Shown here: positions 5,502 through 34,660 of the stretch, in pieces | How the letters are laid out: every line of letters begins with the position of its first letter | Numbering within the stretch: position 1 is the first letter of the stretch | Source of the DNA: a virus | Direction: 5' to 3' (one strand) | IMG/VR virus record: IMGVR_UViG_3300045988_133686 | Span: 1 to 64,000 of that record | Length of the DNA stretch: 64,000 bases | Notes under the pieces: generated by a model | What the model saw: only the letters and a program-made list of their open reading frames with translations | Told to the model about the DNA's origin: nothing | Databases searched by the model: none | Translations under genes and position numbers: made by a program

Positions 5502-6623
5502 ATGAAAACCCTGCACAATGTAAAACTTGCAACGACCCGCCGCATCACCAACAGCGCCCGCGCCCATGTTACACCGTCCCGCTACTATCATTATATACCT
5601 GCCGACGGCACCGCCCGCGCGCTGGAACTGAATGCACTTGCTAGCTTGTGCGCATACCTTGCAATCCGCGCCCGCGCCAGCACTAACCCGCGCAGCACCG
5701 CCGACATCCGCGCCCGCATGACTGCGTATCAGTACGACCTTGCCAACGTTGCACGCGCTGCATCCGCCCGCGCATCGTCCCGCGCTATTGCGTACCGTAT
5801 GATATCCGGCGCGATCCCCGCCGTCCGCGCGTATGCCGCGCAGCATCCCACGCACCGCAATGCCAGCGCTGCCGAAATCGCCGCAATCCGCGCCCGCATG
5901 GATGACATCGCAAACCTCCCCGCGTCGATCAATGCGGACGTTGATGATGTCATCGCCGCCGCTGCCGAATCACTGTTGAACAGCATCGCACCCGCGCACG
6001 GACGCGCCTGCATCATCACCCGCGCGGACACCCACAATGCAATATTGGCCTGCCGCCGCTACTTGTATGCCGTCGCACGCGGACGCGCGGCGGACGAATA
6101 CGATCCCGCCGCCGACATCCGCACGACGCGCGACGATGACCGCGCCGCGTATGCCCGCGACATCATCGCAACGGCCGCCCGTATCAGTCCCAACGCCGCC
6201 GCGCTGATTGATCGACTCTTGCAAGGCGACACCGTTTCAGACGCCGCCGACGCTTGTGAAATCAATCCCAGCACCGCCCGCGCTATCATTCACCGCATCC
6301 GCAAGGCAGCAACGCAGCACCCGGACGCGCGGCAACTGTTCGCGCTGCTTAATAATCCCGCGCACGTTGACGGCCTCCCGGATAGCGCCAGCATCACCGA
6401 TCATATTTTGCCGCCCGTCCCGCCGCGCATGGACTACACCGCACCGCGCCGCTGCACCGTACCGGACCCTGCCGCCGTGCGTGCTCTGGTAGTTGGCTGG
6501 ACATGTGGCACAGCGGACGTCGCCGGATGCGACTACTTTCCGTTTGATGTCGCGCCGCATCCGATCGACACAGAAGAGTATGCGGCGCTCAAGCACGGCA
6601 CGGATAGTTTGTGGATTAGATAG
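5502..6623 (+). CDS. Ala/Arg-rich protein with a sigma-70 region-4-like HTH
   Basis: 373-aa ORF in a locally GC-rich segment, with SD GAAGAAGGA. The segment LIDRLLQGDTVSDAADACEINPSTARAIIHRIRKAA looks like a region-4/LuxR-type HTH. A rho-independent terminator follows the gene. Confidence 0.5.
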   Translation: MKTLHNVKLATTRRITNSARAHVTPSRYYHYIPADGTARALELNALASLCAYLAIRARASTNPRSTADIRARMTAYQYDLANVARAASARASSRAIAYRMISGAIPAVRAYAAQHPTHRNASAAEIAAIRARMDDIANLPASINADVDDVIAAAAESLLNSIAPAHGRACIITRADTHNAILACRRYLYAVARGRAADEYDPAADIRTTRDDDRAAYARDIIATAARISPNAAALIDRLLQGDTVSDAADACEINPSTARAIIHRIRKAATQHPDARQLFALLNNPAHVDGLPDSASITDHILPPVPPRMDYTAPRRCTVPDPAAVRALVVGWTCGTADVAGCDYFPFDVAPHPIDTEEYAALKHGTDSLWIR

Positions 6624-6629
6624 TTTGAC

Positions 6630-6657
6630 GGCCAGCCGTAAAGGCTGGCCTTTTTTT
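6630..6657 (+). terminator. rho-independent terminator
   Basis: GGCCAGCC-gtaaa-GGCTGGCC followed by TTTTTTT. Confidence 0.8.
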
Positions 6658-6977
6658 GTGGATATGACTGTGTTAGTTGGATGATACAGTTTTTGTAACG
6701 CAGGCGTTATAATTGACCGCCGGTCATTTTGCACATCCGCGCAGCGCCTAGCCCGCCCGCCGTCCGTCCGGCGTTCCCGGCTGCATGGCACGCTGTCAAT
6801 GCAGGGTTTTTGTACTTTTCCGGCATTCAGGCGGGCTAGTAAAAACCGCGCAGCCGTTCCCATAAAATAATCCCGCGTAAACAGCTCCCCCTCACTCTCA
6901 AGCCGCTCCATCCCATCCCTCTCACACTTCTTCTCTCTCCTCTCAGAAATCCCACATTTCTCACAAATTCTCTCTTA

Positions 6978-7022
6978 TTTCATTTAATATCTTCTCATTT
7001 CATTCAATAAAATTTCATTCAA
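6978..7022. repeat. iteron-like direct repeats TTTCATT(CAA)
   Basis: TTTCATT occurs at 6978, 6998 and 7013. ATTTCATTCAA is exact at 6997-7007 and 7012-7022 (15-bp period) in an AT-rich stretch. Confidence 0.5.
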
Positions 7023-7038
7023 CTCAAGAAATCGTTTG

Positions 7039-7056
7039 ATTAACAACGTTGTTAAT
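7039..7056. promoter_or_regulatory. 18-bp perfect palindrome (candidate operator or protein-binding site)
   Basis: ATTAACAACGTTGTTAAT is its own reverse complement. Confidence 0.5.
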
Positions 7057-7067
7057 GTATGCCCGGC

Positions 7068-7400
7068 ATAAGGGAGGGAAGCACCTGCTCGGTTCTCCCC
7101 TCCCTCGTCGTTCGCTTAAACCCTCATGCTGGTCATGCTCACCGCATGGCGCTCACTCCTCACCCTCCTCTCTCCTTCGCTGCGGGGCTGCCCATAACAC
7201 ACAAAAGGTGCGGCGCTTCACAGCCCCTCCGCTCATGCTCACCGCGCGGCGGCGTGATAAGGGAGGTGAAGCATCCCCTCCCTCTGTCTTCGCTCGTAGA
7301 TACTGCCCGCCCTACTACACACCTCACCGACTCGCTACGCCATTCACCCACCCCTCTTGACGCGGGCTTGCCTATATCACCAAATTGAACACTCACCTTC
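7068..7400. repeat. C/T-rich imperfect duplication with GGGAGG...CCTCCC hairpins
   Basis: ATAAGGGAGG(G/T)GAAGCA...CCCCTCCCTC..TTCGCT occurs at 7068 and 7257. TCATGCTCACCGC is exact at 7133 and 7233. Confidence 0.5.
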
Positions 7401-13744: not shown

Positions 13745-14023
13745 ATGAGCGAGACTAGTATCATGAACATTCAGGGCATTGACTGCTACGAGCTGAACGG
13801 CGTGGCGTATCTGAAGCTAGAGGCTGTGGCAAGGGGGCTGGGGTTTACTCAGAATAAAAACGGAGTTGAGTATGTGAAATGGGAACGCGTCATTGCTTAC
13901 CTCAAGGAACTTGGATTTTCCCCAGAAGTGGGGAAAGACGATTACATCCCCGAAAACATCTTCTACCGCTGGTCAACGAAAGCGAAGAACACGACCGCCG
14001 GGCGTGCCAACAAGTTGGCATGA
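13745..14023 (+). CDS. small Bro-N/KilA-N-like domain protein
   Basis: 92 aa. GVAYLKLEAVARGLGFTQ...IPENIFYR resembles the N-terminal half of phage DNA-binding antirepressor domains. Confidence 0.45.
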   Translation: MSETSIMNIQGIDCYELNGVAYLKLEAVARGLGFTQNKNGVEYVKWERVIAYLKELGFSPEVGKDDYIPENIFYRWSTKAKNTTAGRANKLA

Positions 14024-14156
14024 CAATTCGCCATTTGTGGCGAACACCCAGACATCTTTTGCTGTATCACAACCAGAGCGAAGAAAGAGATTCCCGGCAA
14101 GTTGGGAAATCTCCGCATCCGCGCAGGTTGGAATTTTTATTATAAGGAGATTTTAT

Positions 14157-14864
14157 ATGAACGAACTGCAAATCATTGGCGCAACATCTGACGAACCCAC
14201 CATCTCCGGGCGTGAGCTTCACGCGAAGCTAGAGATCGACACGCCGTATACGATGTGGTTCAGCCGTATGTGCGAATACGGCTTTACCGAGGATCAGGAC
14301 TATGTAACAAATCTGTTAGATAGGTCTGACGGGCAGGCTGGCAAGCCCCGCACCGACCACCAGCTCACTATCGACATGGCAAAGGAGATCTGCATGCTTC
14401 AGCGCAGCGAGCAGGGCAAGGCCGTGCGCCGCTATCTCCTCGATCTCGAAAAGCAGTGGAACACGCCGGAGGCTGTGATGAGCCGCGCGCTCCGGATGGC
14501 CGATGCCAAGCTCGCGGAACTGAATGGTAAGATGACTCTGCTAGAGGCCGAGAACAAGGCTCTGCTTCCGAAGGCAGAGTATCACGACGAGGTGTTGAAC
14601 AAGCCCGGCCTGATCTGCACCTCTACCATCGCAAAAGACCTCGGATTGAGCAGCGCTGCGAAGCTGAACAAAATGCTCAACGATCATAACGTCATCTACC
14701 GCGACGGCTCCGGCACTTGGAAGACATACGCGGAGTATGAGTACCTGATGACGGACGGCTACGCGGATTACCAGAGCTACACCGGCGCGAACACAAAGCC
14801 CACCCTGAAGTGGACCGAGAAAGGCCGCAAATGGCTGTCCGAGAAAGTGCAGGTGTGGGCGTGA
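14157..14864 (+). CDS. phage antirepressor (AntA/ORF6N-like N-terminus + KilAC-like C-terminus)
   Basis: Start at 14157 after TAAGGAGA, within an initiation cassette almost identical to that of 12963. ISGRELHAKLEIDTPYTMWFSRMCEYGFTEDQDY is AntA-like. The track ORF's 88 upstream codons look non-coding. Confidence 0.8.
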   Translation: MNELQIIGATSDEPTISGRELHAKLEIDTPYTMWFSRMCEYGFTEDQDYVTNLLDRSDGQAGKPRTDHQLTIDMAKEICMLQRSEQGKAVRRYLLDLEKQWNTPEAVMSRALRMADAKLAELNGKMTLLEAENKALLPKAEYHDEVLNKPGLICTSTIAKDLGLSSAAKLNKMLNDHNVIYRDGSGTWKTYAEYEYLMTDGYADYQSYTGANTKPTLKWTEKGRKWLSEKVQVWA

Positions 14865-15022
14865 TGGACTTTGACGTGAGGTATGACAGGGAGCGCGGTG
14901 CCTATAAAGTAACATTGGTGCGGGACGACGGCGCGCACATTCCTCTGATGCGCGACTTCGACTCTGCCTACGCGGCGGTGCTGGCTGTGCAGGAGATGTG
15001 CGAAAGCAGGGATGACGCTTGA
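14864..15022 (+). CDS. hypothetical small protein
   Basis: The ATG overlaps the preceding TGA (GTGATGG). Product is 52 aa. Confidence 0.45.
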   Translation: MDFDVRYDRERGAYKVTLVRDDGAHIPLMRDFDSAYAAVLAVQEMCESRDDA

Positions 15023-15390
15023 TATTGTTGCTTATTTTCTCCTTTGCACCATCGGCGATTTATGTTATCGGTGCGATTCTGAACTTTATAATTCGCTACG
15101 ATTTTTATGAATTACGCCGCTCGCCCGGAGATATGGTCATTGAGTGCAGCGCAATTTCGATGTGGTACACGGTCGTATTCTCGGTATTGCCGCATGCTTT
15201 CAATGGCTTTATACCAATATACGGAATCTGCGCCATCGCTTCCTCAATATTTATGTTCGGTGCGAGGTTATTCTTAGGCGAAGCTCGATGGAGCGTGACT
15301 GCCACGGTGTTAGTCCATGCCCTGTTGTTTATGATTATGTGCTCAACGAGCGCCGAGGTAGCGATGCTTCTTTATTCCATGCCCACTTAG
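15019..15390 (+). CDS. integral membrane protein
   Basis: TTG start overlapping the preceding stop. 123 aa with about four hydrophobic segments. Confidence 0.6.
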   Translation: MILLLIFSFAPSAIYVIGAILNFIIRYDFYELRRSPGDMVIECSAISMWYTVVFSVLPHAFNGFIPIYGICAIASSIFMFGARLFLGEARWSVTATVLVHALLFMIMCSTSAEVAMLLYSMPT

Positions 15391-15404
15391 AAGGAGTGAT
15401 CTTA

Positions 15405-15791
15405 ACGGAGCAGTCAGCCTACTGGGGTATACCAATTTTGATGGATATGGGCTTATTGGTGTGCCTATATAGCCTGCGTAGACTTGCAAAGATGCGCTAT
15501 GACAACGACCGCGTGGCTTCATACTTGTTTATGGGCGGGTATGCTTTCTTTAGCGTGCTCTCGCTCACCATTTTGTTTGGACTCACGACACCGAATGATT
15601 GGTACGCTTGGCCGGGTGTGTTGCTGAGCTTTATCTTTATGTTGAACCCATATATCCTGTCCAGCGCAAGCTATAAACCGCGCCGCCGCCAGAAGATAAC
15701 ATGCGCGATTGTCCTGGCCGCGTTGGTTATTATCCGCTTGTCTGTCGGTTATGTCTTGTCACAGCACGTCGATATTTTCCCTATCAGTTAA
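15405..15791 (+). CDS. integral membrane protein (start codon uncertain, possibly ACG)
   Basis: The frame is open from 15144. The only strong SD (AAGGAG, 15391-96) sits 8 nt before an in-frame ACG at 15405. The first ATG (15432) has no SD. The product has several TM segments. Confidence 0.5.
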   Translation, partial: TEQSAYWGIPILMDMGLLVCLYSLRRLAKMRYDNDRVASYLFMGGYAFFSVLSLTILFGLTTPNDWYAWPGVLLSFIFMLNPYILSSASYKPRRRQKITCAIVLAALVIIRLSVGYVLSQHVDIFPIS

Positions 15792-15965
15792 AGGAGTGAT
15801 CTTACGAGCCAACCAAGAGCAATCAACATTCCCTCCATCGACGCGAAAGACCTATACCTGGCTAACCACACTGTTGACCCGAACCCCGGCGGCTTCAGTC
15901 TGAAGTACCGGAGCGGCGACATAAACATCAACCGGTTCTACGCAACTATACCTTTTTCACTCGAT

Positions 15966-17597
15966 ATGATTAAATTACGCGAAGTTTATGATAAAGTTTA
16001 TCGTAACTCGCGTTTTTCTTTCTTTATAGGCGAAAAAGAGTATTCAACCCGCGTGATTAACGTCACGTTCAACTATTCCGTGAAGGAGTTCAACAAGCTC
16101 GGCAAGGATACCTATATCCGCAATGGCTACCTCGCCCGTAACGTTGACTTCGAGGACTGCGCGTGCGTGCGGGACGGTCAGCTCGTCGGGATAAAGTGCG
16201 GTGAGCTGGTAGAGAACCCATTGCCGCCGGAAACGCTCGGCAAGTTCTTTCTTGTGCAGGATGGCAAGTACGCGGCAAAGACAAACATCTCCTCCACGCT
16301 GTCCGTGGCTGACTTGCGGCATGAGCTGTACGATAATGGCTTCGACTGCGATGGCGTTCACTATGTGCGCTATAAGCGATCCAGCGGCAGCTCGCGCGTC
16401 GGCAAGTGTCTGTTCGTCGATGAGAAAATGTACAGCCGCCTGCATCGCTATGACCTGTGCGGCCTGAAGGTGCGGGAGGGAGATAAGATTGACCTCGCCG
16501 GGTTTGAGTCCTATATCGCACTGACCTCTAGCTCAATCATTGACACATTGCAGATTGATCCGCGCGGCATTCTCATGATTGATGACTACGACAGCACCTT
16601 CCGCGACCATGTTGTCGCTACGGGCGTGCGAGATGGCGAGGTATACACAGAGTATACTGACACAGATGTGACCAACTCCATATGGGACGGTCAGTCGTTG
16701 ATGCAGACCGAGTTATTCGGCTCATACGCGCAGTATGGCTTTGTGCTGCTGCGCAACCGCTTCTTCAAGAGTGCGTGCTTTAATTGCGACATCCAGCAGT
16801 TCTTCGCAGATCATGGTATCACAAGCATCGATCAGGTACACGGCAAGACGCTAGCAGCCCGGCTGGAAGACATTAAGCTCATCACCACGCCGTCCAGCAT
16901 CAAATACCTGAAGTTCGGCACCTTCGAGCAATGGCTTAACAACATCGAGCCAACATTTGGCGTTGTCAAACACGAGAAGCCGACGCACTTTTTCGGCGGC
17001 CGCATGGTTCAGACACACTATCAGCTTCTAAACACTCTACAGCTTTCGCAGAAAGAGGTTGACGAATTCCTGGCTCCGTCGCTGGAATATGTGCGGCAGC
17101 TACGCTTCAATCCGGCTGTGCTGCGGTGGCACATCAAGTATCCTGAGAAACAGGGAATCAGCGGCACGCCTATGCCGACAAAGAATGACATTGTTTACAG
17201 GCTGCTCGGCATCAACGAGGACTTCGCGAAGACCAAGGAGTACGCAGAGTTCCGCGGCGATCTCGTAAAGTCATATATGACAGATTTGCGCAAAGGCAAG
17301 GTGCTGGTCGAAGGCAATTATAGTACGCTGTGCGGTAATCCTGTCGAGATGTTATATGCCTCCATCGGAGAGTTTGATGGCAAGTCACGCATCGGCGTCG
17401 GGTGTGTCGTGTCGAAGAGGTTTGCGCCGGGCATCACGTTGCTTGGCTCACGCAGCCCGCATATCACCATCGCCAATGTGTGGCTGTCACAGAATACGGC
17501 GAATGAAGAAATCGAGCGGTACTTTGTGATGACGGACGAGATCTTATATATCAATAGTATCGGTGAAAATATTTTACAACGTCTGAGTGGGTGCGAT
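15966..17597 (+). CDS. YonO-like single-subunit (two-barrel) RNA polymerase, exon 1
   Basis: 544 codons ending ...GSRSPHITIANVWL...ENILQRLSGCD. The frame is also open 58 codons upstream to an SD at 15791, so the true start may be upstream. The family call rests on RSPxxxxxxV...LSGxD|FDSD, which resembles the catalytic region of YonO/QDE-1-type polymerases. Confidence 0.75.
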
Positions 17598-17871
17598 TGC
17601 CCTAAAGGTCGCGTTGCGTAGGAATGCGCAATGAAAACCATGTGAACCCATACATATGGGGTGTGGAAGAAATTCTGCTAACGGTGAACATCTAAGTGTC
17701 CAACATATGACAACACCGTGCCAAGCTGATCGTTAACAATATTATTAACGGCAGAAGGTGTAACGACTAAGTGGCGGCGGGTGCAATTCCCATCGTCCAG
17801 CGCGTGGCGCCGAGTTCCGGCGAAGAGATAGTCTACTCCGTTCAAATATGGCGAAAGCCACGGTAGAAAGG
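17598..17871 (+). ncRNA. group I self-splicing intron (ORF-less, 274 nt)
   Basis: The 5' exon ends in U, pairing as U-G within P1 (UGCGAU/GUCGCG, 17592-97 with 17608-13). The terminal G is at 17871. An R-like ACGACUAAG and an S-like AAGAGAUAGUCU form P7 (GACUA 17765-69 / UAGUC 17829-33). There is a GAAA-capped hairpin at 17849-60. Joining the exons restores the frame and a DxDxD motif. Confidence 0.8.
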
Positions 17872-18843
17872 TTTGACTCAGACACTGTATTACTCACTGA
17901 TAATAAACTTCTGATTGATGTAGCTCGCCGCAACACTGACTTCGAAGTGCCGACGAGCATGATTAAGGCCGCGAAGGCAAACCTCTATTATACCAACAAA
18001 GATAAGGCCGACCTCGATATTCGCACGAGCGTTAACAAGATCGGCGAGATCATCAACATGTCTCAGGAACTGAATACTAAGCTATGGGACAAACTCAACA
18101 CCGGCACGCCGAAGAGTTCCGATGAGGTTCGCAACCTATATAAAGACATCGCCCAGTTGGACGTCATGTCTAACATCGAGATTGACCGCGCGAAGAAGAT
18201 TCTCCCAGTAGACAACGTGGCCGAACTCAAAAAGCTCAAGGAATGTTATAAGAACAAAGATGAGAAGGGGCGCAAAATCCGCCCGAACTTCTTTGCTCCT
18301 CTCGCCCGCAGCAAGGGCTACTACGACACAGAGAAAGTCAACTACAAGCGGTTCCATACAGCCATGGATTATGTGCAACACACGCTGAATTGCTTCCAAT
18401 ATAAGTTGCGCGAATACAAGATGGAACTGCTCCCGCTCTCCTCTATCCTCGATCCAAGCATCTCAACCGACACCGCTGACTATGACAAGGTGCGGCAGGT
18501 GCTGCGGATCGTGCGCGAGTGTCAGAGCACGGCTAAAGACATTTGGCGCGATGACTCCATGCCTGGCGCCGCGAAGGCCGAACGGGTTGCAGAGCTGCGT
18601 GCCGACTGTGCGTCTCTGGTTGGCCACTTCGTCATCTCGGTTGAGACAGCACGAGCTTTAGTGCTAGCGATCGAGAAAGAAAGCAACCGCGACGTGCGGC
18701 AGTACCTCTTCACCGTCCTCTTCGGCACGCCGAACCCCGCGCTGATCGATGCTTTGCGCCGCAGCGTCTCTCCGATCCCCCTCATCGTGCCTGATGACAA
18801 TGGAGACATTGTGCTGTACGGTCGCAGTTTTTCGCAAAAATAG
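17872..18843 (+). CDS. YonO-like RNA polymerase, exon 2
   Basis: In frame with exon 1 after intron removal. It begins FDSDTVLLTDNKLLIDVA. The ATG at 17848 listed in the track has no SD and lies inside the intron. The spliced product is 867 aa. Confidence 0.75.
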   Translation, partial: FDSDTVLLTDNKLLIDVARRNTDFEVPTSMIKAAKANLYYTNKDKADLDIRTSVNKIGEIINMSQELNTKLWDKLNTGTPKSSDEVRNLYKDIAQLDVMSNIEIDRAKKILPVDNVAELKKLKECYKNKDEKGRKIRPNFFAPLARSKGYYDTEKVNYKRFHTAMDYVQHTLNCFQYKLREYKMELLPLSSILDPSISTDTADYDKVRQVLRIVRECQSTAKDIWRDDSMPGAAKAERVAELRADCASLVGHFVISVETARALVLAIEKESNRDVRQYLFTVLFGTPNPALIDALRRSVSPIPLIVPDDNGDIVLYGRSFSQK

Positions 18844-18969
18844 CCCATATTTTCCAGGTAAGGTTTTAAGAATGCCTGAATTCAGGGCTTTTTCATCGCT
18901 TTTGCTAGACCCCATGTGGTACATTAGGCATTTTAATGTGCCGCATTTGAATAGAAGGGATGAAAGGGA

Positions 18970-19182
18970 ATGATCCAGATTACCAAGCAAGAGGCGGATA
19001 GACTCCGCCGCATCGACCCGACCATTTACATCACTATCACCGGCACCGGCAAGAAGAGTCGCAACAAGCGCCGTTACGTTGAAGAAGATATGCGGGCGCT
19101 GCGTCTGCTGCCGGACAACGCCGAGGCCGCCGCCATCGTGTCAGCTTATGACAAGCGTATGGAGGCGCGCAGCCATGTATAA
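18970..19182 (+). CDS. hypothetical small basic protein
   Basis: 70-aa ORF with GGGATGAAAGGGA upstream. Confidence 0.5.
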   Translation: MIQITKQEADRLRRIDPTIYITITGTGKKSRNKRRYVEEDMRALRLLPDNAEAAAIVSAYDKRMEARSHV

Positions 19183-20158
19183 GAGACACGCTAACGAGCC
19201 GTATGAAGACTACTTCGTGCGGCTCTTTGAGCACAAATCAGAGTATGGGTTGACCTGCCAGCAAATCGCAGACCTCTTGAATGCACAGAACGGCAACGCT
19301 TTTGGTGAGTGTGCGTACCGCAAGGAATACAGCGCCTTTAACCGAGGCCGAAGGTATGAACGCGCACAAGCCGAAAGAGGTGTTGCCGCGCGCATTCTCT
19401 GCGTGAGTGACCTCCATGTGCCGTTCCAGCTCCCCGTGGAAACCTTCCATGACTATGCTGGCGGCGTAGTCGATACCTTGGTCATTAATGGTGACGTCGA
19501 GGACTGCCAGAGTGTGTCTGCCTTCCAGAAGAAATACCGCGTTAATTTTATAGAAGAGATGATCGCGGCGCGGCAGTATCTGCTCGACCTCATTGAGCAC
19601 ATCAAGCCACGCACCGTCTACATTACGCGCGGCAATCACGAGGATAGACTGCTGCGATACCTGACCGACCGCATCAATGACGACCTGCTCCAGCTTATGC
19701 CGGACTCGCCGCTCGACCTTATTATCAACAGCGGCTTCCATAATTATGACCGCAAGACAGAGGTTGATGTCTTTTACAGGCCATTGCGGCAGGTACTGGA
19801 TGGACAGGTTGAGCTGATCTATGACGGCAACTGGCACTGCAAAGTTGGGCACACAATCTTTGCCCACCCGCTCACTTACTCATCCGCGATGTTGAAGACC
19901 ACTGAGAAAGCGGTCAACTTCTTCCTGCGCGAAGATCGGGACTTTGATTCGATCGTGCTGGCTCATACGCACAAGCTCGGCCAGTATGTGCAGGGTGGCA
20001 TTGCGATGTACGAGCAAGGGTGCTGCTGCCAGGTTGAAAAGATGAATTACGCTGATGGTAAGTTAACGCTGCCACAGCAGAAGGGCTTTATTGTCATAGC
20101 CCAGGATAAGGATGGGCATATTTTGCCCGATCACACGAAGTTAGTGCAGCTAAATTAA
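19175..20158 (+). CDS. calcineurin-like metallophosphoesterase
   Basis: Start at 19175 (MYKRHANEPY). Motifs seen: CVSDLHVP (DxH), INGDVED (GD), RGNHED (GNHE), LAHTHK (GHxH-like). Confidence 0.8.
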   Translation: MYKRHANEPYEDYFVRLFEHKSEYGLTCQQIADLLNAQNGNAFGECAYRKEYSAFNRGRRYERAQAERGVAARILCVSDLHVPFQLPVETFHDYAGGVVDTLVINGDVEDCQSVSAFQKKYRVNFIEEMIAARQYLLDLIEHIKPRTVYITRGNHEDRLLRYLTDRINDDLLQLMPDSPLDLIINSGFHNYDRKTEVDVFYRPLRQVLDGQVELIYDGNWHCKVGHTIFAHPLTYSSAMLKTTEKAVNFFLREDRDFDSIVLAHTHKLGQYVQGGIAMYEQGCCCQVEKMNYADGKLTLPQQKGFIVIAQDKDGHILPDHTKLVQLN

Positions 20159-20187: not shown

Positions 20188-20973
20188 ATGAACGAGCTGA
20201 AGACTTTTGAAAATGAACGTTTTGGTAATGTGCGTGTGACCATGATTGACAATGAACCGTGGTTCGTGGCGACTGATGTGTGCAAGGCGCTGGACGTCAA
20301 GAATAATAGAGATGCGCTCACTCGTATTGACGATGATGAGAAGGGTGTAGCTTTAACCGACACCCTTGGCGGCGCACAGGAAGTTACTGTTGTCAACGAA
20401 TCTGGCCTCTACTCCCTTGTGCTTGGCAGCCGTAAGCCAGAGGCTAAGGTCTTTAAGCGTTGGATCACCCACGACGTTATTCCCACTATTCGCAAGCATG
20501 GTGTCTATATGACCCCAGACGCTCTCGAAAAGGCGCTGCTCTCGCCGGACTATCTGCTAAAGGTTGTCACCGCTCTCAAGAACGAGACGGATAAGCGCAA
20601 GGCACTTGAGAAGAAGGTTGAACATGACAAACCGAAGGTTATCCTTGCTGATGCGATCACTGAGTCCGACGACTCTGTGCTCGTAAAAACACTGGCAACC
20701 ATCCTGAAGCAGAACGGCTATGACATCGGTCAAAACCGTCTGTTCGAGCGGCTTCGCAATGAAGGTTTCCTTGTTTCTCGCGCCGGTAATTCCCGCAATC
20801 TCCCCACTCAGAAGTCTATGGATATGGGCTTGTTCGAAGTGCGCGAGAGCGTGATCTACTCCGGCCGTGACACTAAAGTTGTCCAGACTCCCTATGTTAC
20901 TGGCAAAGGCCAGATCTACTTCGTCAATAAATACTGCGGACATCCGCCCATTAAGGAACTGGCGGAAGAGTAA
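20188..20973 (+). CDS. phage antirepressor (Bro-N + KilAC), third paralogue
   Basis: FENERFGNVRVTMIDNEPWFVATDVCKALDV...GLYSLVLGSRKPEAKVFKRWITHDVIPTIRKHG fits Bro-N. The KilAC-like C-terminus is VLVKTLATILKQNGYDIGQNRLFERLRNEGFL. Confidence 0.85.
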   Translation: MNELKTFENERFGNVRVTMIDNEPWFVATDVCKALDVKNNRDALTRIDDDEKGVALTDTLGGAQEVTVVNESGLYSLVLGSRKPEAKVFKRWITHDVIPTIRKHGVYMTPDALEKALLSPDYLLKVVTALKNETDKRKALEKKVEHDKPKVILADAITESDDSVLVKTLATILKQNGYDIGQNRLFERLRNEGFLVSRAGNSRNLPTQKSMDMGLFEVRESVIYSGRDTKVVQTPYVTGKGQIYFVNKYCGHPPIKELAEE

Positions 20974-33948: not shown

Positions 33949-34192
33949 GCATACTAGGCAGTGAATTTAACCACTGCGGCTAGCAGAGCAGCCGCCATCA
34001 AAAGTTGGGAGGCGGCGCGTACTAGATCTGTGACTTGCGCCACAGCGTACTCATACGATTCACCTCCGTTTATTCTATAGGCCAACAAGTAGCATGGGTT
34101 CCTCGCAACAAAACCATCGCTGCTCGCAACATATAGTCACGGACTAGTACGCATTTATTATCAACTATACAACCAATTATTTCAAGGTTCAT

Positions 34193-34660
34193 ATGAAAAT
34201 CATCTCATTCGATCAGGCTACCCACATTACCGGATATGCGATTTATAACGATGGGGAACTTGCAGACTTCGGCATTATACGCTCAAAAGCCACCGATCCC
34301 CATGTACGAATGCGCGAGATGTTTGAGCAAATCTCCGCGCTGATTGACCAGGAACCCCCGGACAATGTATCCATAGAAGGGACGCAATGCCAGAACGGCA
34401 ACTACAAAGCTTTCAGCACATTATGCCAGATGCAAGGTGTACTATTTGCAATTCTATTTATCCGCCACATCGAATTCTTTGTGGTGCCACCGATGACTTG
34501 GAAGGCATTTCACAAGATCGGTAACGGCAAGCGCGCGCTCCAGAAAAGAGCGGCTATTCAGATCGTACACAATAAAGGCATTGACGCGTCGGAAGACGAG
34601 TGCGAAGCAATCCTCCAGGGCGAATACGTCTTGGACTTGATACGAAAGGAACAAAAATGA
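34193..34660 (+). CDS. RuvC-like Holliday junction resolvase
   Basis: MKIISFDQATHITGYAI (first catalytic Asp), VSIEGTQ (Glu) and a C-terminal DASEDECEAILQG. Size is 155 aa. Confidence 0.65.
   Translation: MKIISFDQATHITGYAIYNDGELADFGIIRSKATDPHVRMREMFEQISALIDQEPPDNVSIEGTQCQNGNYKAFSTLCQMQGVLFAILFIRHIEFFVVPPMTWKAFHKIGNGKRALQKRAAIQIVHNKGIDASEDECEAILQGEYVLDLIRKEQK

Follow-up and report, generated by a model that had tools for sequence, protein, structure and literature searches.

Can a phage gene that is interrupted inside the active site of its product still encode one protein? The locus that raises this question lies at positions 15,966 to 18,843 of a viral DNA stretch of 64,000 nucleotides (nt), namely positions 1 to 64,000 of IMG/VR virus record IMGVR_UViG_3300045988_133686 (hereafter, the window), where two neighboring open reading frames (ORFs) on the same strand each look like part of an RNA polymerase. 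An earlier account made from the letters alone, which we call the sequence-only reading, had attributed the interruption to a group I intron. Our analysis indicates that the locus is very probably one YonO-type polymerase gene interrupted by a 274-nt group I intron that contains no ORF.

The two open reading frames are exons of a single gene

The upstream ORF, 15966..17621 (551 aa), ends with ENILQRLSGCD followed by the residues CPKGRVA and a stop codon, and the downstream ORF, 17848..18843 (331 aa), begins with MAKATVER and reads FDSDTVLLTDNKLL (FDSDTVLL...) from its ninth codon on. When nucleotide 17597 is joined to nucleotide 17872 the frame is kept, and in the resulting protein of 867 aa LQRLSGCD runs directly into FDSDTVLL (NSIGENILQRLSGCD joined to FDSDTVLLTDNKLLID; junction peptide LSGCDFDSDTVLL); at the nucleotide level the predicted ligation point joins GGGTGCGAT to TTTGACTCAGAC. 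The gene is thus divided as follows.

15966..17597, plus strand: first exon of the YonO-like polymerase gene, with 544 codons counted from ATG 15966, the last of them GAT for the first aspartate of the triad
17598..17871, plus strand: predicted group I intron, 274 nt, without an ORF, placed by the gap in contig L004, an Rfam Intron_gpI match at 17594..17853 and covariation in the family
17872..18843, plus strand: exon 2, 323 codons and a stop, starting TTT GAC TCA GAC (FDSD)

A search of a large protein collection with the joined protein returned 4031 relatives. The best of these, P0001, is encoded on the metagenomic contig L004 as an uninterrupted protein of 867 aa with 97% amino acid identity, and the alignment of L004 with the window DNA contains a single gap, which covers precisely 17598..17871 (274 nt). 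A T on both sides of the junction permits a slide of one nucleotide; the group I rule of a U before the intron and a G at its end selects 17598-17871, which makes T17597 the last exon base and G17871 (omega-G) the last intron base. Exon 1 is collinear with P0001/L004, with MT835469 and with YonO, and the intron lies in phase 0, where the codon for the first Asp of the catalytic D-F-D-S-D triad ends. The two ORFs are confirmed as two exons of a single gene. The sequence-only reading fares well at this level: the two ORFs with their quoted endings and motifs, the in-frame join of 17597 to 17872 with its 867-aa translation, the missing Shine-Dalgarno (SD) sequence before the downstream ATG and the absence of an ORF from the intron are all correct, and the limits it had set, with G17871 as the terminal base, agree with the gap in L004.

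The window is probably metagenomic, and the insertion might accordingly be thought an artefact of assembly or sequencing, or an element of another kind, such as a group II intron, an insertion sequence or an intein. An assembly artefact is excluded by an independent IMG/VR contig, L027 (= L243), in which the 274-nt element sits at the same position, 97% identical and with 8 substitutions. As for other elements, the insertion contains no ORF and no terminal inverted repeats, is not intein-like in that the frame stops after seven codons, and has Intron_gpI as its sole Rfam match among 4227 families. We assign this group of explanations next to no probability.

The joined product resembles YonO-type RNA polymerases

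Pfam and PDB sequence searches with the joined protein gave nothing useful, and homology was therefore shown through PHROGs, a direct BLASTP comparison with YonO and a structure search. The match to PHROG 8308 is one continuous stretch that covers residues 50-734 of the joined protein (E 1.9e-100). SPbeta YonO (AF020713, 61356-63875), which is annotated as a single uninterrupted coding sequence, is homologous with 67.8 bits (E 1e-15) over 611 residues, at an identity of only 24%; the alignment crosses the junction and places DFDSD opposite the DNDGD of YonO, so that the aspartate triads are aligned. At the junction, uninterrupted homologues from GenBank phages read SGADFDSDTVLLTDN / LSGADFDSDTVLLTDN, LNGCDYDSDSMLV (NGCDYDSD) and NGCDFDGDAIY, the last of these from Enterocloster phage PMBT24, where the protein is annotated 'RNA-dependent RNA polymerase'. 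The three aspartates, D544, D546 and D548, are invariant in 22 homologues, and the DFDSD triad is formed only once the exons are joined. In YonO this triad is essential for catalysis, which its mutation abolishes (Forrest et al., 2017; PMC5467207).

For the structural comparison, an AlphaFold2 model of the intron-less allele P0001 served as a 97% identical stand-in for the joined protein (pLDDT 84.9, pTM 0.77). Its best Foldseek match in the PDB is QDE-1 (2j7n; E 3.8e-15, TM 0.50, about 870 columns), followed by plant RDR2 (E 1e-15 to 1e-11 for QDE-1/RDR2) and then by a weak match to Pol II Rpb1. The top structural matches to QDE-1 and RDR2 (2j7n and 7w82; TM about 0.5 over about 870 columns, E 1e-14 to 1e-15) stand at a sequence identity of 12%, and both are eukaryotic cellular enzymes that act on RNA templates. 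Some homologues of the joined protein carry Pfam PF05183. These sequence comparisons and the model support the assignment of the host gene to the YonO-type single-chain two-barrel RNA polymerases. The D-x-D-x-D loop that the sequence-only reading had ascribed to a polymerase of the YonO/QDE-1 type is borne out by the BLASTP alignment across the junction and by the QDE-1 match.

One could suppose instead that the polymerase is naturally split, the 551-aa and 331-aa chains being translated separately and assembled, with a spacer or a dead intron between their genes; multisubunit RNA polymerases of phages and archaea are often split into separate genes, as is generally known, and the downstream ORF does start with an ATG, at 17848. 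Such an enzyme would, however, have its triad divided between the chains, one aspartate on the first and two on the second, with seven and eight foreign residues at the active site. Upstream of ATG 17848 there is no SD-like sequence, and the codon itself lies inside a conserved intron motif (AAAUAU with a GAAA hairpin), at which relatives read AUAUCGGG and have no ATG. A two-polypeptide enzyme is unlikely for these three reasons. The supposed spacer is moreover a complete, covarying group I core in which the differences between the window and L027 preserve pairing (see below), and the 97% identical allele is uninterrupted. We regard a split polymerase as most improbable, and a single interrupted gene as the better account.

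The insertion belongs to a family of phage group I introns

A scan of the 64-kb window against the 4227 Rfam families gave two hits at E <= 0.1, a Pistol ribozyme and Intron_gpI (RF00028). In the E-value scan the latter covers 17594..17853 and the full model (1-253) with 32.1 bits, at E 1.6e-6 in the local scan and 2.3e-4 for the whole window. The covariance-model hit that the sequence-only reading expected is therefore present but does not reach the curated threshold, the gathering score being 50, and the default scan at curated thresholds reports the Pistol ribozyme only and misses the intron.

Because this score lies below the curated cut-off, we sought evidence that does not depend on Rfam. 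Two core patterns drawn from the intron, ACGACTAAG..AAGAKATAGTC and CCGTGCCAAGC..GAAGGTGTAACGA, each occur in at least 120 viral-contig stretches in IMG/VR, and nhmmer with the window intron finds dozens of relatives, similar to it in length and spread over many different genes. A blastn search of the intron against GenBank phage records gave only short matches, to Staphylococcus phage introns. Taken together, these sequence comparisons support the insertion as a group I intron that belongs to a large and abundant phage intron family.

The predicted fold contains the following elements, given in order along the intron.

17592..17613, plus strand: P1, exon UGCGAU (17592-97) with the internal guide GUCGCG (17608-13) and the splice-site wobble U17597.G17608
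17614..17631, plus strand: P2 hairpin UUGCG/CGCAA, from the minimum free energy (MFE) fold and the sequence
17638..17644, plus strand: P3 5' strand CCAUGUG, pairing with 17801-07
17647..17678, plus strand: hairpins PA (17647-60) and PB (17663-78, GAAA loop), between P3 and J3/4
17681..17759, plus strand: P4-P6 domain, with P4 ACGGUG (17681-86) / CACCGU (17714-19), P5 between them and P6/P6a at 17720-59
17765..17769, plus strand: P7 5' strand GACUA, pairing with UAGUC (17829-33) in a pseudoknot with P3
17773..17798, plus strand: one peripheral hairpin, following P7 and preceding the P3 3' strand
17801..17807, plus strand: P3 3' strand CGCGUGG, pairing with 17638-44
17808..17822, plus strand: P8 hairpin CGCCG AGUUC CGGCG, from the MFE fold and the sequence
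17823..17833, plus strand: J8/7 and P7 3' strand (AAGAGAUAGUC, with UAGUC at 17829-33), fitting the Rfam consensus
17838..17871, plus strand: P9 (CCG/CGG) with an inner GGC-GAAA-GCC hairpin and the tail to G17871

We aligned 15 family members with MAFFT (alignment A1) and ran RNAalifold on it unguided, adding the P7 pseudoknot afterwards for the counting of pairs. The program returned P1, the long-range P3, the two hairpins between P3 and P4, and P4, P6 and P9; the MFE fold of the window intron by itself has the same helices. With P7 included, 91.1% of the cells are paired; sliding the 3' partners by 1-3 columns lowers this to 33-45%. Both members have changed in 32 of the 56 pairs. Sliding also reduces the covariation score, from 0.428 to 0.06-0.08, and none of 500 shuffles reaches the observed values, although 15 related sequences may inflate such shuffle statistics; the slid-partner control is the fairer of the two, and there the strong difference persists.

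The helices that define the core are the best conserved in pairing, P3, P4, P6, P7 and P9 being 87-100% paired with compensatory changes. Both P3 and P7 are paired throughout, four of the seven P3 pairs having changed on both sides, and P7 of the intron at the same site in L111 is GAUCA/UGAUC, a double compensatory change. P9 and P9a are likewise 100% paired with compensatory changes. P1 covaries, is present in the MFE fold and keeps its U.G pair in 14 of the 15 members. The scores of P2 and P8 are too low on this MAFFT alignment, and the peripheral hairpin is left out of it: at P2 (57% paired) the relatives have poorly aligned hairpins of unrelated sequence, often with GUAA loops, and at P8, where A1 is out of register, they again have hairpins of unrelated sequence. 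The J8/7-P7 motif has a single exact match within the window. The sequence-only reading had already recognized P1 (UGCGAU/GUCGCG), the R and S elements ACGACTAAG (17763-71) and AAGAGATAGTCT (17823-34) that form P7, and the GAAA-capped hairpin, whose sequence GGCGAAAGCC lies at 17850-59; the P3 helix was absent from its account.

The P3 placement by Rfam (UCUGCU/GGCGGCG) was rejected, the long-range helix 17638-44/17801-07 being the one that covaries in all family members. PA and PB, which are 92% and 97.7% paired with four pairs each changed on both sides, form a stretch that is an insertion in the Intron_gpI model. The misplaced P3 and these two unmodeled hairpins may be the cause of the low Rfam score. 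Two further pairings were considered. UAAA at 17603-06 can pair with UUUG at 17872-75 as a P10, which is short and A/U-rich and has no consistent support in the relatives at the same site; and a pairing of the conserved GGUGUG with an 'AUAC' found after P7 in some relatives was set aside, both strands being invariant and the window having no AUAC. A copy of the J8/7-P7 motif with one mismatch, AACATATAGTC, lies at 34128-34138 (+), just upstream of ORF 34193..34660; there is no Rfam match there, and this copy is probably due to chance.

Selection on exons and intron, and the case for splicing

Comparison of the window with L027 gives insight into whether the interrupted gene is still in use, since both share the intron and their differences therefore arose with the intron present. 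The exons differ at 98 synonymous and 11 non-synonymous codons, and the interrupted gene is under purifying selection. The intron differs at eight positions: the loop of P6a has two of the changes, and the loop of P8 and a bulge of P6 have one each. The other four keep or improve pairing: two in P5 turn A.C into G.U, U17796C turns a G.U of the peripheral hairpin into G-C, and G17804A turns a U.G of P3 into U-A.

Several observations weigh against a complete and active group I intron here. Besides the Rfam score and the failure of the default scan, the covariation structure is partly derived from the same sequences on which it is scored, and the folding energy of the single sequence is ordinary (z = -1.16). 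Most relatives have two or three modules in the segment that separates P7 from the P3 3' strand, and the window has one hairpin there; with these peripheral modules absent, splicing of the window intron may be reduced or assisted by protein. The reduced form is nonetheless common to the window, the L148-type introns and L281, and its sharing with independent relatives (the L148 group and L281) suggests that it works.

Carried further, these points would make the insertion a decayed remnant that no longer splices and the polymerase gene a pseudogene, to which one may add the loss of an endonuclease gene, an annotated ATG without an SD sequence and an N-terminal extension without a canonical start codon (see below). 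A pseudogene or a dead intron is argued against by the exon and intron changes between the window and L027: both exons are intact and their divergence is nearly all synonymous, and the core helices are all intact with changes that preserve pairing. The reduced periphery also occurs in independent members, and the intron-less allele shares the odd start region unchanged. We consider decay very unlikely.

We infer from the sequence that the intron is self-splicing. The polymerase gene would be transcribed as a single pre-mRNA, in which the intron would fold into P1 (with U17597.G17608), P2, the P3/P7 pseudoknot, P4-P6, P8 and P9. An external guanosine would attack after U17597, and the freed exon 1 would then attack after G17871, so that the ligated mRNA would encode a polymerase of 867 aa, or slightly longer, with its metal-binding loop intact. 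On an unspliced transcript, translation would stop seven codons into the intron, and the product would be without two of the three aspartates and without the C-terminal third of the protein.

Related introns and mobility

Introns in relatives of the polymerase gene were found by tblastn of the joined protein against fetched loci and by reading of the junctions. Eighty loci were inspected for split genes and three were split; the IMG/VR relatives number 373 and the homologues about 4000. The insertions fall at the following places.

Same codon boundary as in the window (D before FDSD, or D before YDGD): L111/L024, L166, L162, L141, L146, L230, L281
5 nt upstream (T before GT of the Cys codon): L154
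6 nt downstream (DMD before GD): L211
Other sites in the gene, at about aa 604, 640 and 650: L107, L207, L045, L111, L313

Introns thus enter the gene at no fewer than three points within 11 nt of the motif, and at more sites elsewhere. Over exon 1, the host proteins of introns at the same site are between 69% and about 22% identical to the window protein. The introns of L166, L162 and L154 are about 1 kb long and carry an endonuclease ORF in the P5 loop, whose product in L166 and L154 consists of NUMOD4 and HNH_3 domains. In the 394-nt intron of L281 the same P5 loop holds only MEEIWKDIENYEGYYMVSNFG*, the first 21 codons of an endonuclease gene. Introns with HNH, with a remnant and without an ORF look, by sequence, like successive stages of a homing cycle. 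No homologue of the HNH or GIY-YIG genes of the family was found anywhere in the window.

Other insertions were seen in the same genes. L230, a distant YonO-like gene, has a GIY-YIG ORF (about 6440-7300; Pfam E 2e-12) in a second insertion downstream of the intron at the shared site. Further insertions in YonO-like genes, at about residues 604, 640 and 650, are found in L111 (about 1236-1567), L024, L045, L313, L107 and L207; they range from about 330 nt to about 1.3 kb, and some at least have the same group I core motifs. The polymerase gene of L111 has two introns.

The exon sequence around the insertion site differs from the rest of the gene.

17566..18365, plus strand: divergent tract relative to the intron-less L004, flanking the insertion site

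Relative to L004 there are 3-5 mismatches per 100 nt in most of exon 1 and 7 in its last 32 nt. The first 450 nt or so of exon 2 hold, in successive stretches, 31/94, 23, 33, 22 and 10 mismatches, after which there are 0-1; the divergence is about 22-33% from 32 nt before the site to about 450 nt after it. At the protein level the identity to the L004 protein across four segments is 98.9, 86.7, 86.5 and 99.4%. In addition, L281 and the window share an identical block of 62 nt (17577-17638, the last 21 exon bases with P1-P2) that spans the 5' splice site amid surroundings of about 50-80% identity. A milder second patch of divergence occurs within exon 1, at 16166-16365 (11 mismatches per 100 nt vs 3-5 elsewhere), and suggests further mosaicism.

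The divergent tract and the 62-nt block fit homing with co-conversion of the flanking exons. Under such a history a mobile intron family would target the motif in YonO-like genes by means of an intron-encoded NUMOD4/HNH endonuclease; the window copy, having lost the endonuclease gene, would be at a late stage of the homing cycle, and would probably have arrived by recombination together with flanking exon sequence, about 30 nt on the upstream side and 450 nt on the downstream side. The tract could equally reflect loss of the intron in the L004 lineage, which counts against an arrival by homing. Compared with 20 other homologues, neither the window nor the P0001 version of the tract stands clearly nearer to any, and so neither points to a donor. 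Both the homing history and any biological role of the intron are read back from these sequence patterns.

As to such a role, the intron might be more than a mere passenger: since it splits the catalytic triad of the phage's presumed late-gene polymerase, the efficiency of splicing might gate late transcription, the occupied site might protect the phage from related HNH endonucleases, or both, and the insertion hotspot would then be the mark of an arms race over the RNA polymerase; we consider this rather unlikely. Were it true, the efficiency of splicing might be set by GTP, Mg2+ or some factor supplied by host or phage, peripheral helices being absent, and by analogy with PhiPA3 and PhiKZ the occupied site might serve in interference competition with co-infecting phages.

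The start of the gene and its genomic setting

The sequence-only reading had the gene extend from 15966 through both exons. The two exons stand; the start probably does not.

15792..15965, plus strand: probable extension of the polymerase at its N-terminus, 58 codons in frame, without a canonical start codon

The polymerase frame is open upstream of ATG 15966 for 58 codons, to TAA at 15789-91, and the N-terminus of the homologue P0002 matches 15813-16022 by tblastn (70% identity, E 4e-31), P0002 being one of the homologues with a longer N-terminus. Since the frame is open and homologous over these codons, ATG 15966 is probably not the true start, and the sequence places the start further upstream, at about 15800. 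None of the codons ATG, GTG and TTG occurs in frame in the extension. A strong SD sequence, AAAGGAG, lies at 15790-96 and shares bases with the stop codon of the preceding ORF, whose reading frame is the same, and an ACG at 15804 lies 7 nt downstream of this SD sequence. Candidate starts are ACG 15804, ATC 15822, ATT 15828 and ATG 15966. The arrangement of the start region is the same in the intron-less allele L004, so its oddity is unrelated to the intron.

In L004 the neighbors of the polymerase gene carry the Pfam domains YonJ_N, YonG_N/C, YonD_N and HU, in the order of the yon operon of SPbeta (yonO-N-J-G-D), and the window has ORFs of matching lengths in the equivalent positions, as well as a Metallophos protein and a large terminase. 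The flanking genes are thus yon-like as in SPbeta (a YonJ-like phosphoesterase, HU, YonG, terminase and YonD), and by virtue of this gene content and order the source element is an SPbeta-like phage, from a metagenome of the gut type. A megablast search of positions 15000-20000 against GenBank phages gave no match, and a scan of genome contigs with P0001 gave no relative.

The polymerase gene is flanked by antirepressor-like genes of the AntA/ANT and Bro-N/ANT types, at 13893-14864 and 20188-20973. L004 has two adjacent Bro-N/ANT genes after its YonJ-like gene, against one in the window, and so the number of antirepressor copies differs between near-identical phages. The Pistol self-cleaving ribozyme (RF02679) lies at 2035-2101 on the minus strand (64.8 bits vs a gathering score of 34.5, E 1.6e-9) and is the sole Rfam match in the window at curated thresholds.

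Comparison with known systems and significance

Group I introns at the catalytic sites of phage enzymes are classic, as in T4 td, nrdB and nrdD, SPO1 and Twort. T4 td is not known to have hairpins between the P3 5' strand and J3/4-P4. Its P7 and J8/7 sequences (ACGACUA ... AGAUAUAGUC) we take to be the same as those of the window intron, and the hairpin after P7 in some relatives presumably resembles the td 'UCC..GGAGUAG'. Further phage group I introns are known from the Bastillevirinae (PMC11878797). The window intron and its family share with all of these an ORF-less core of about 250-300 nt, and with the td type and other phage introns the choice of highly conserved catalytic positions in nucleic-acid enzymes as insertion sites, the placing of endonuclease ORFs in a peripheral loop and the co-conversion of flanking exons. 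They differ in the host gene and in the two extra covarying hairpins between P3 and J3/4, which lie outside the Rfam consensus.

A close parallel is gp210 of PhiPA3, a virion RNA polymerase subunit gene with an HNH-bearing group I intron that adjoins conserved aspartates and mediates competition between PhiPA3 and PhiKZ (Birkholz et al., 2024; PMC11620839). In both systems a group I intron sits in a phage RNA polymerase gene beside conserved aspartates, and the I-HmuI-like HNH homing endonuclease of gp210 resembles those of the L166, L162 and L154 introns. The gp210 gene, however, encodes a beta-like subunit of the multisubunit polymerase of a nucleus-forming jumbo phage, whereas the host here is the single-chain YonO-type enzyme of an SPbeta-like phage; the window copy, in addition, is without an endonuclease and lies inside the beta'-type DxDxD metal-binding triad itself. 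Vibrio phage pVa5 was considered as a further case of an RNA polymerase intron and set aside, its paper being concerned with a td intron.

We found no paper that names both YonO and a group I intron, in a literature search outside which most subscription-journal papers lie. What is new here is the YonO-type host gene, the position within the DxDxD triad and the cluster of alternative insertion points. The intron is otherwise of a familiar phage kind and establishes no new principle, and its interest is moderate and for the specialist.

For annotation, the consequence is that gene callers would see two truncated 'hypothetical proteins' at such a locus, and the phage would seem to be without an RNA polymerase of its own. 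As the default Rfam threshold misses the intron and its family is abundant, group I introns in uncultured phages are probably under-counted. The related loci form a natural series, from intron-less through HNH-bearing and HNH-remnant to ORF-less alleles, with sites offset by a few bases, and this series could be used to study the choice of endonuclease targets, intron-mediated competition between phages and the dependence of viral RNA polymerase expression on a ribozyme.

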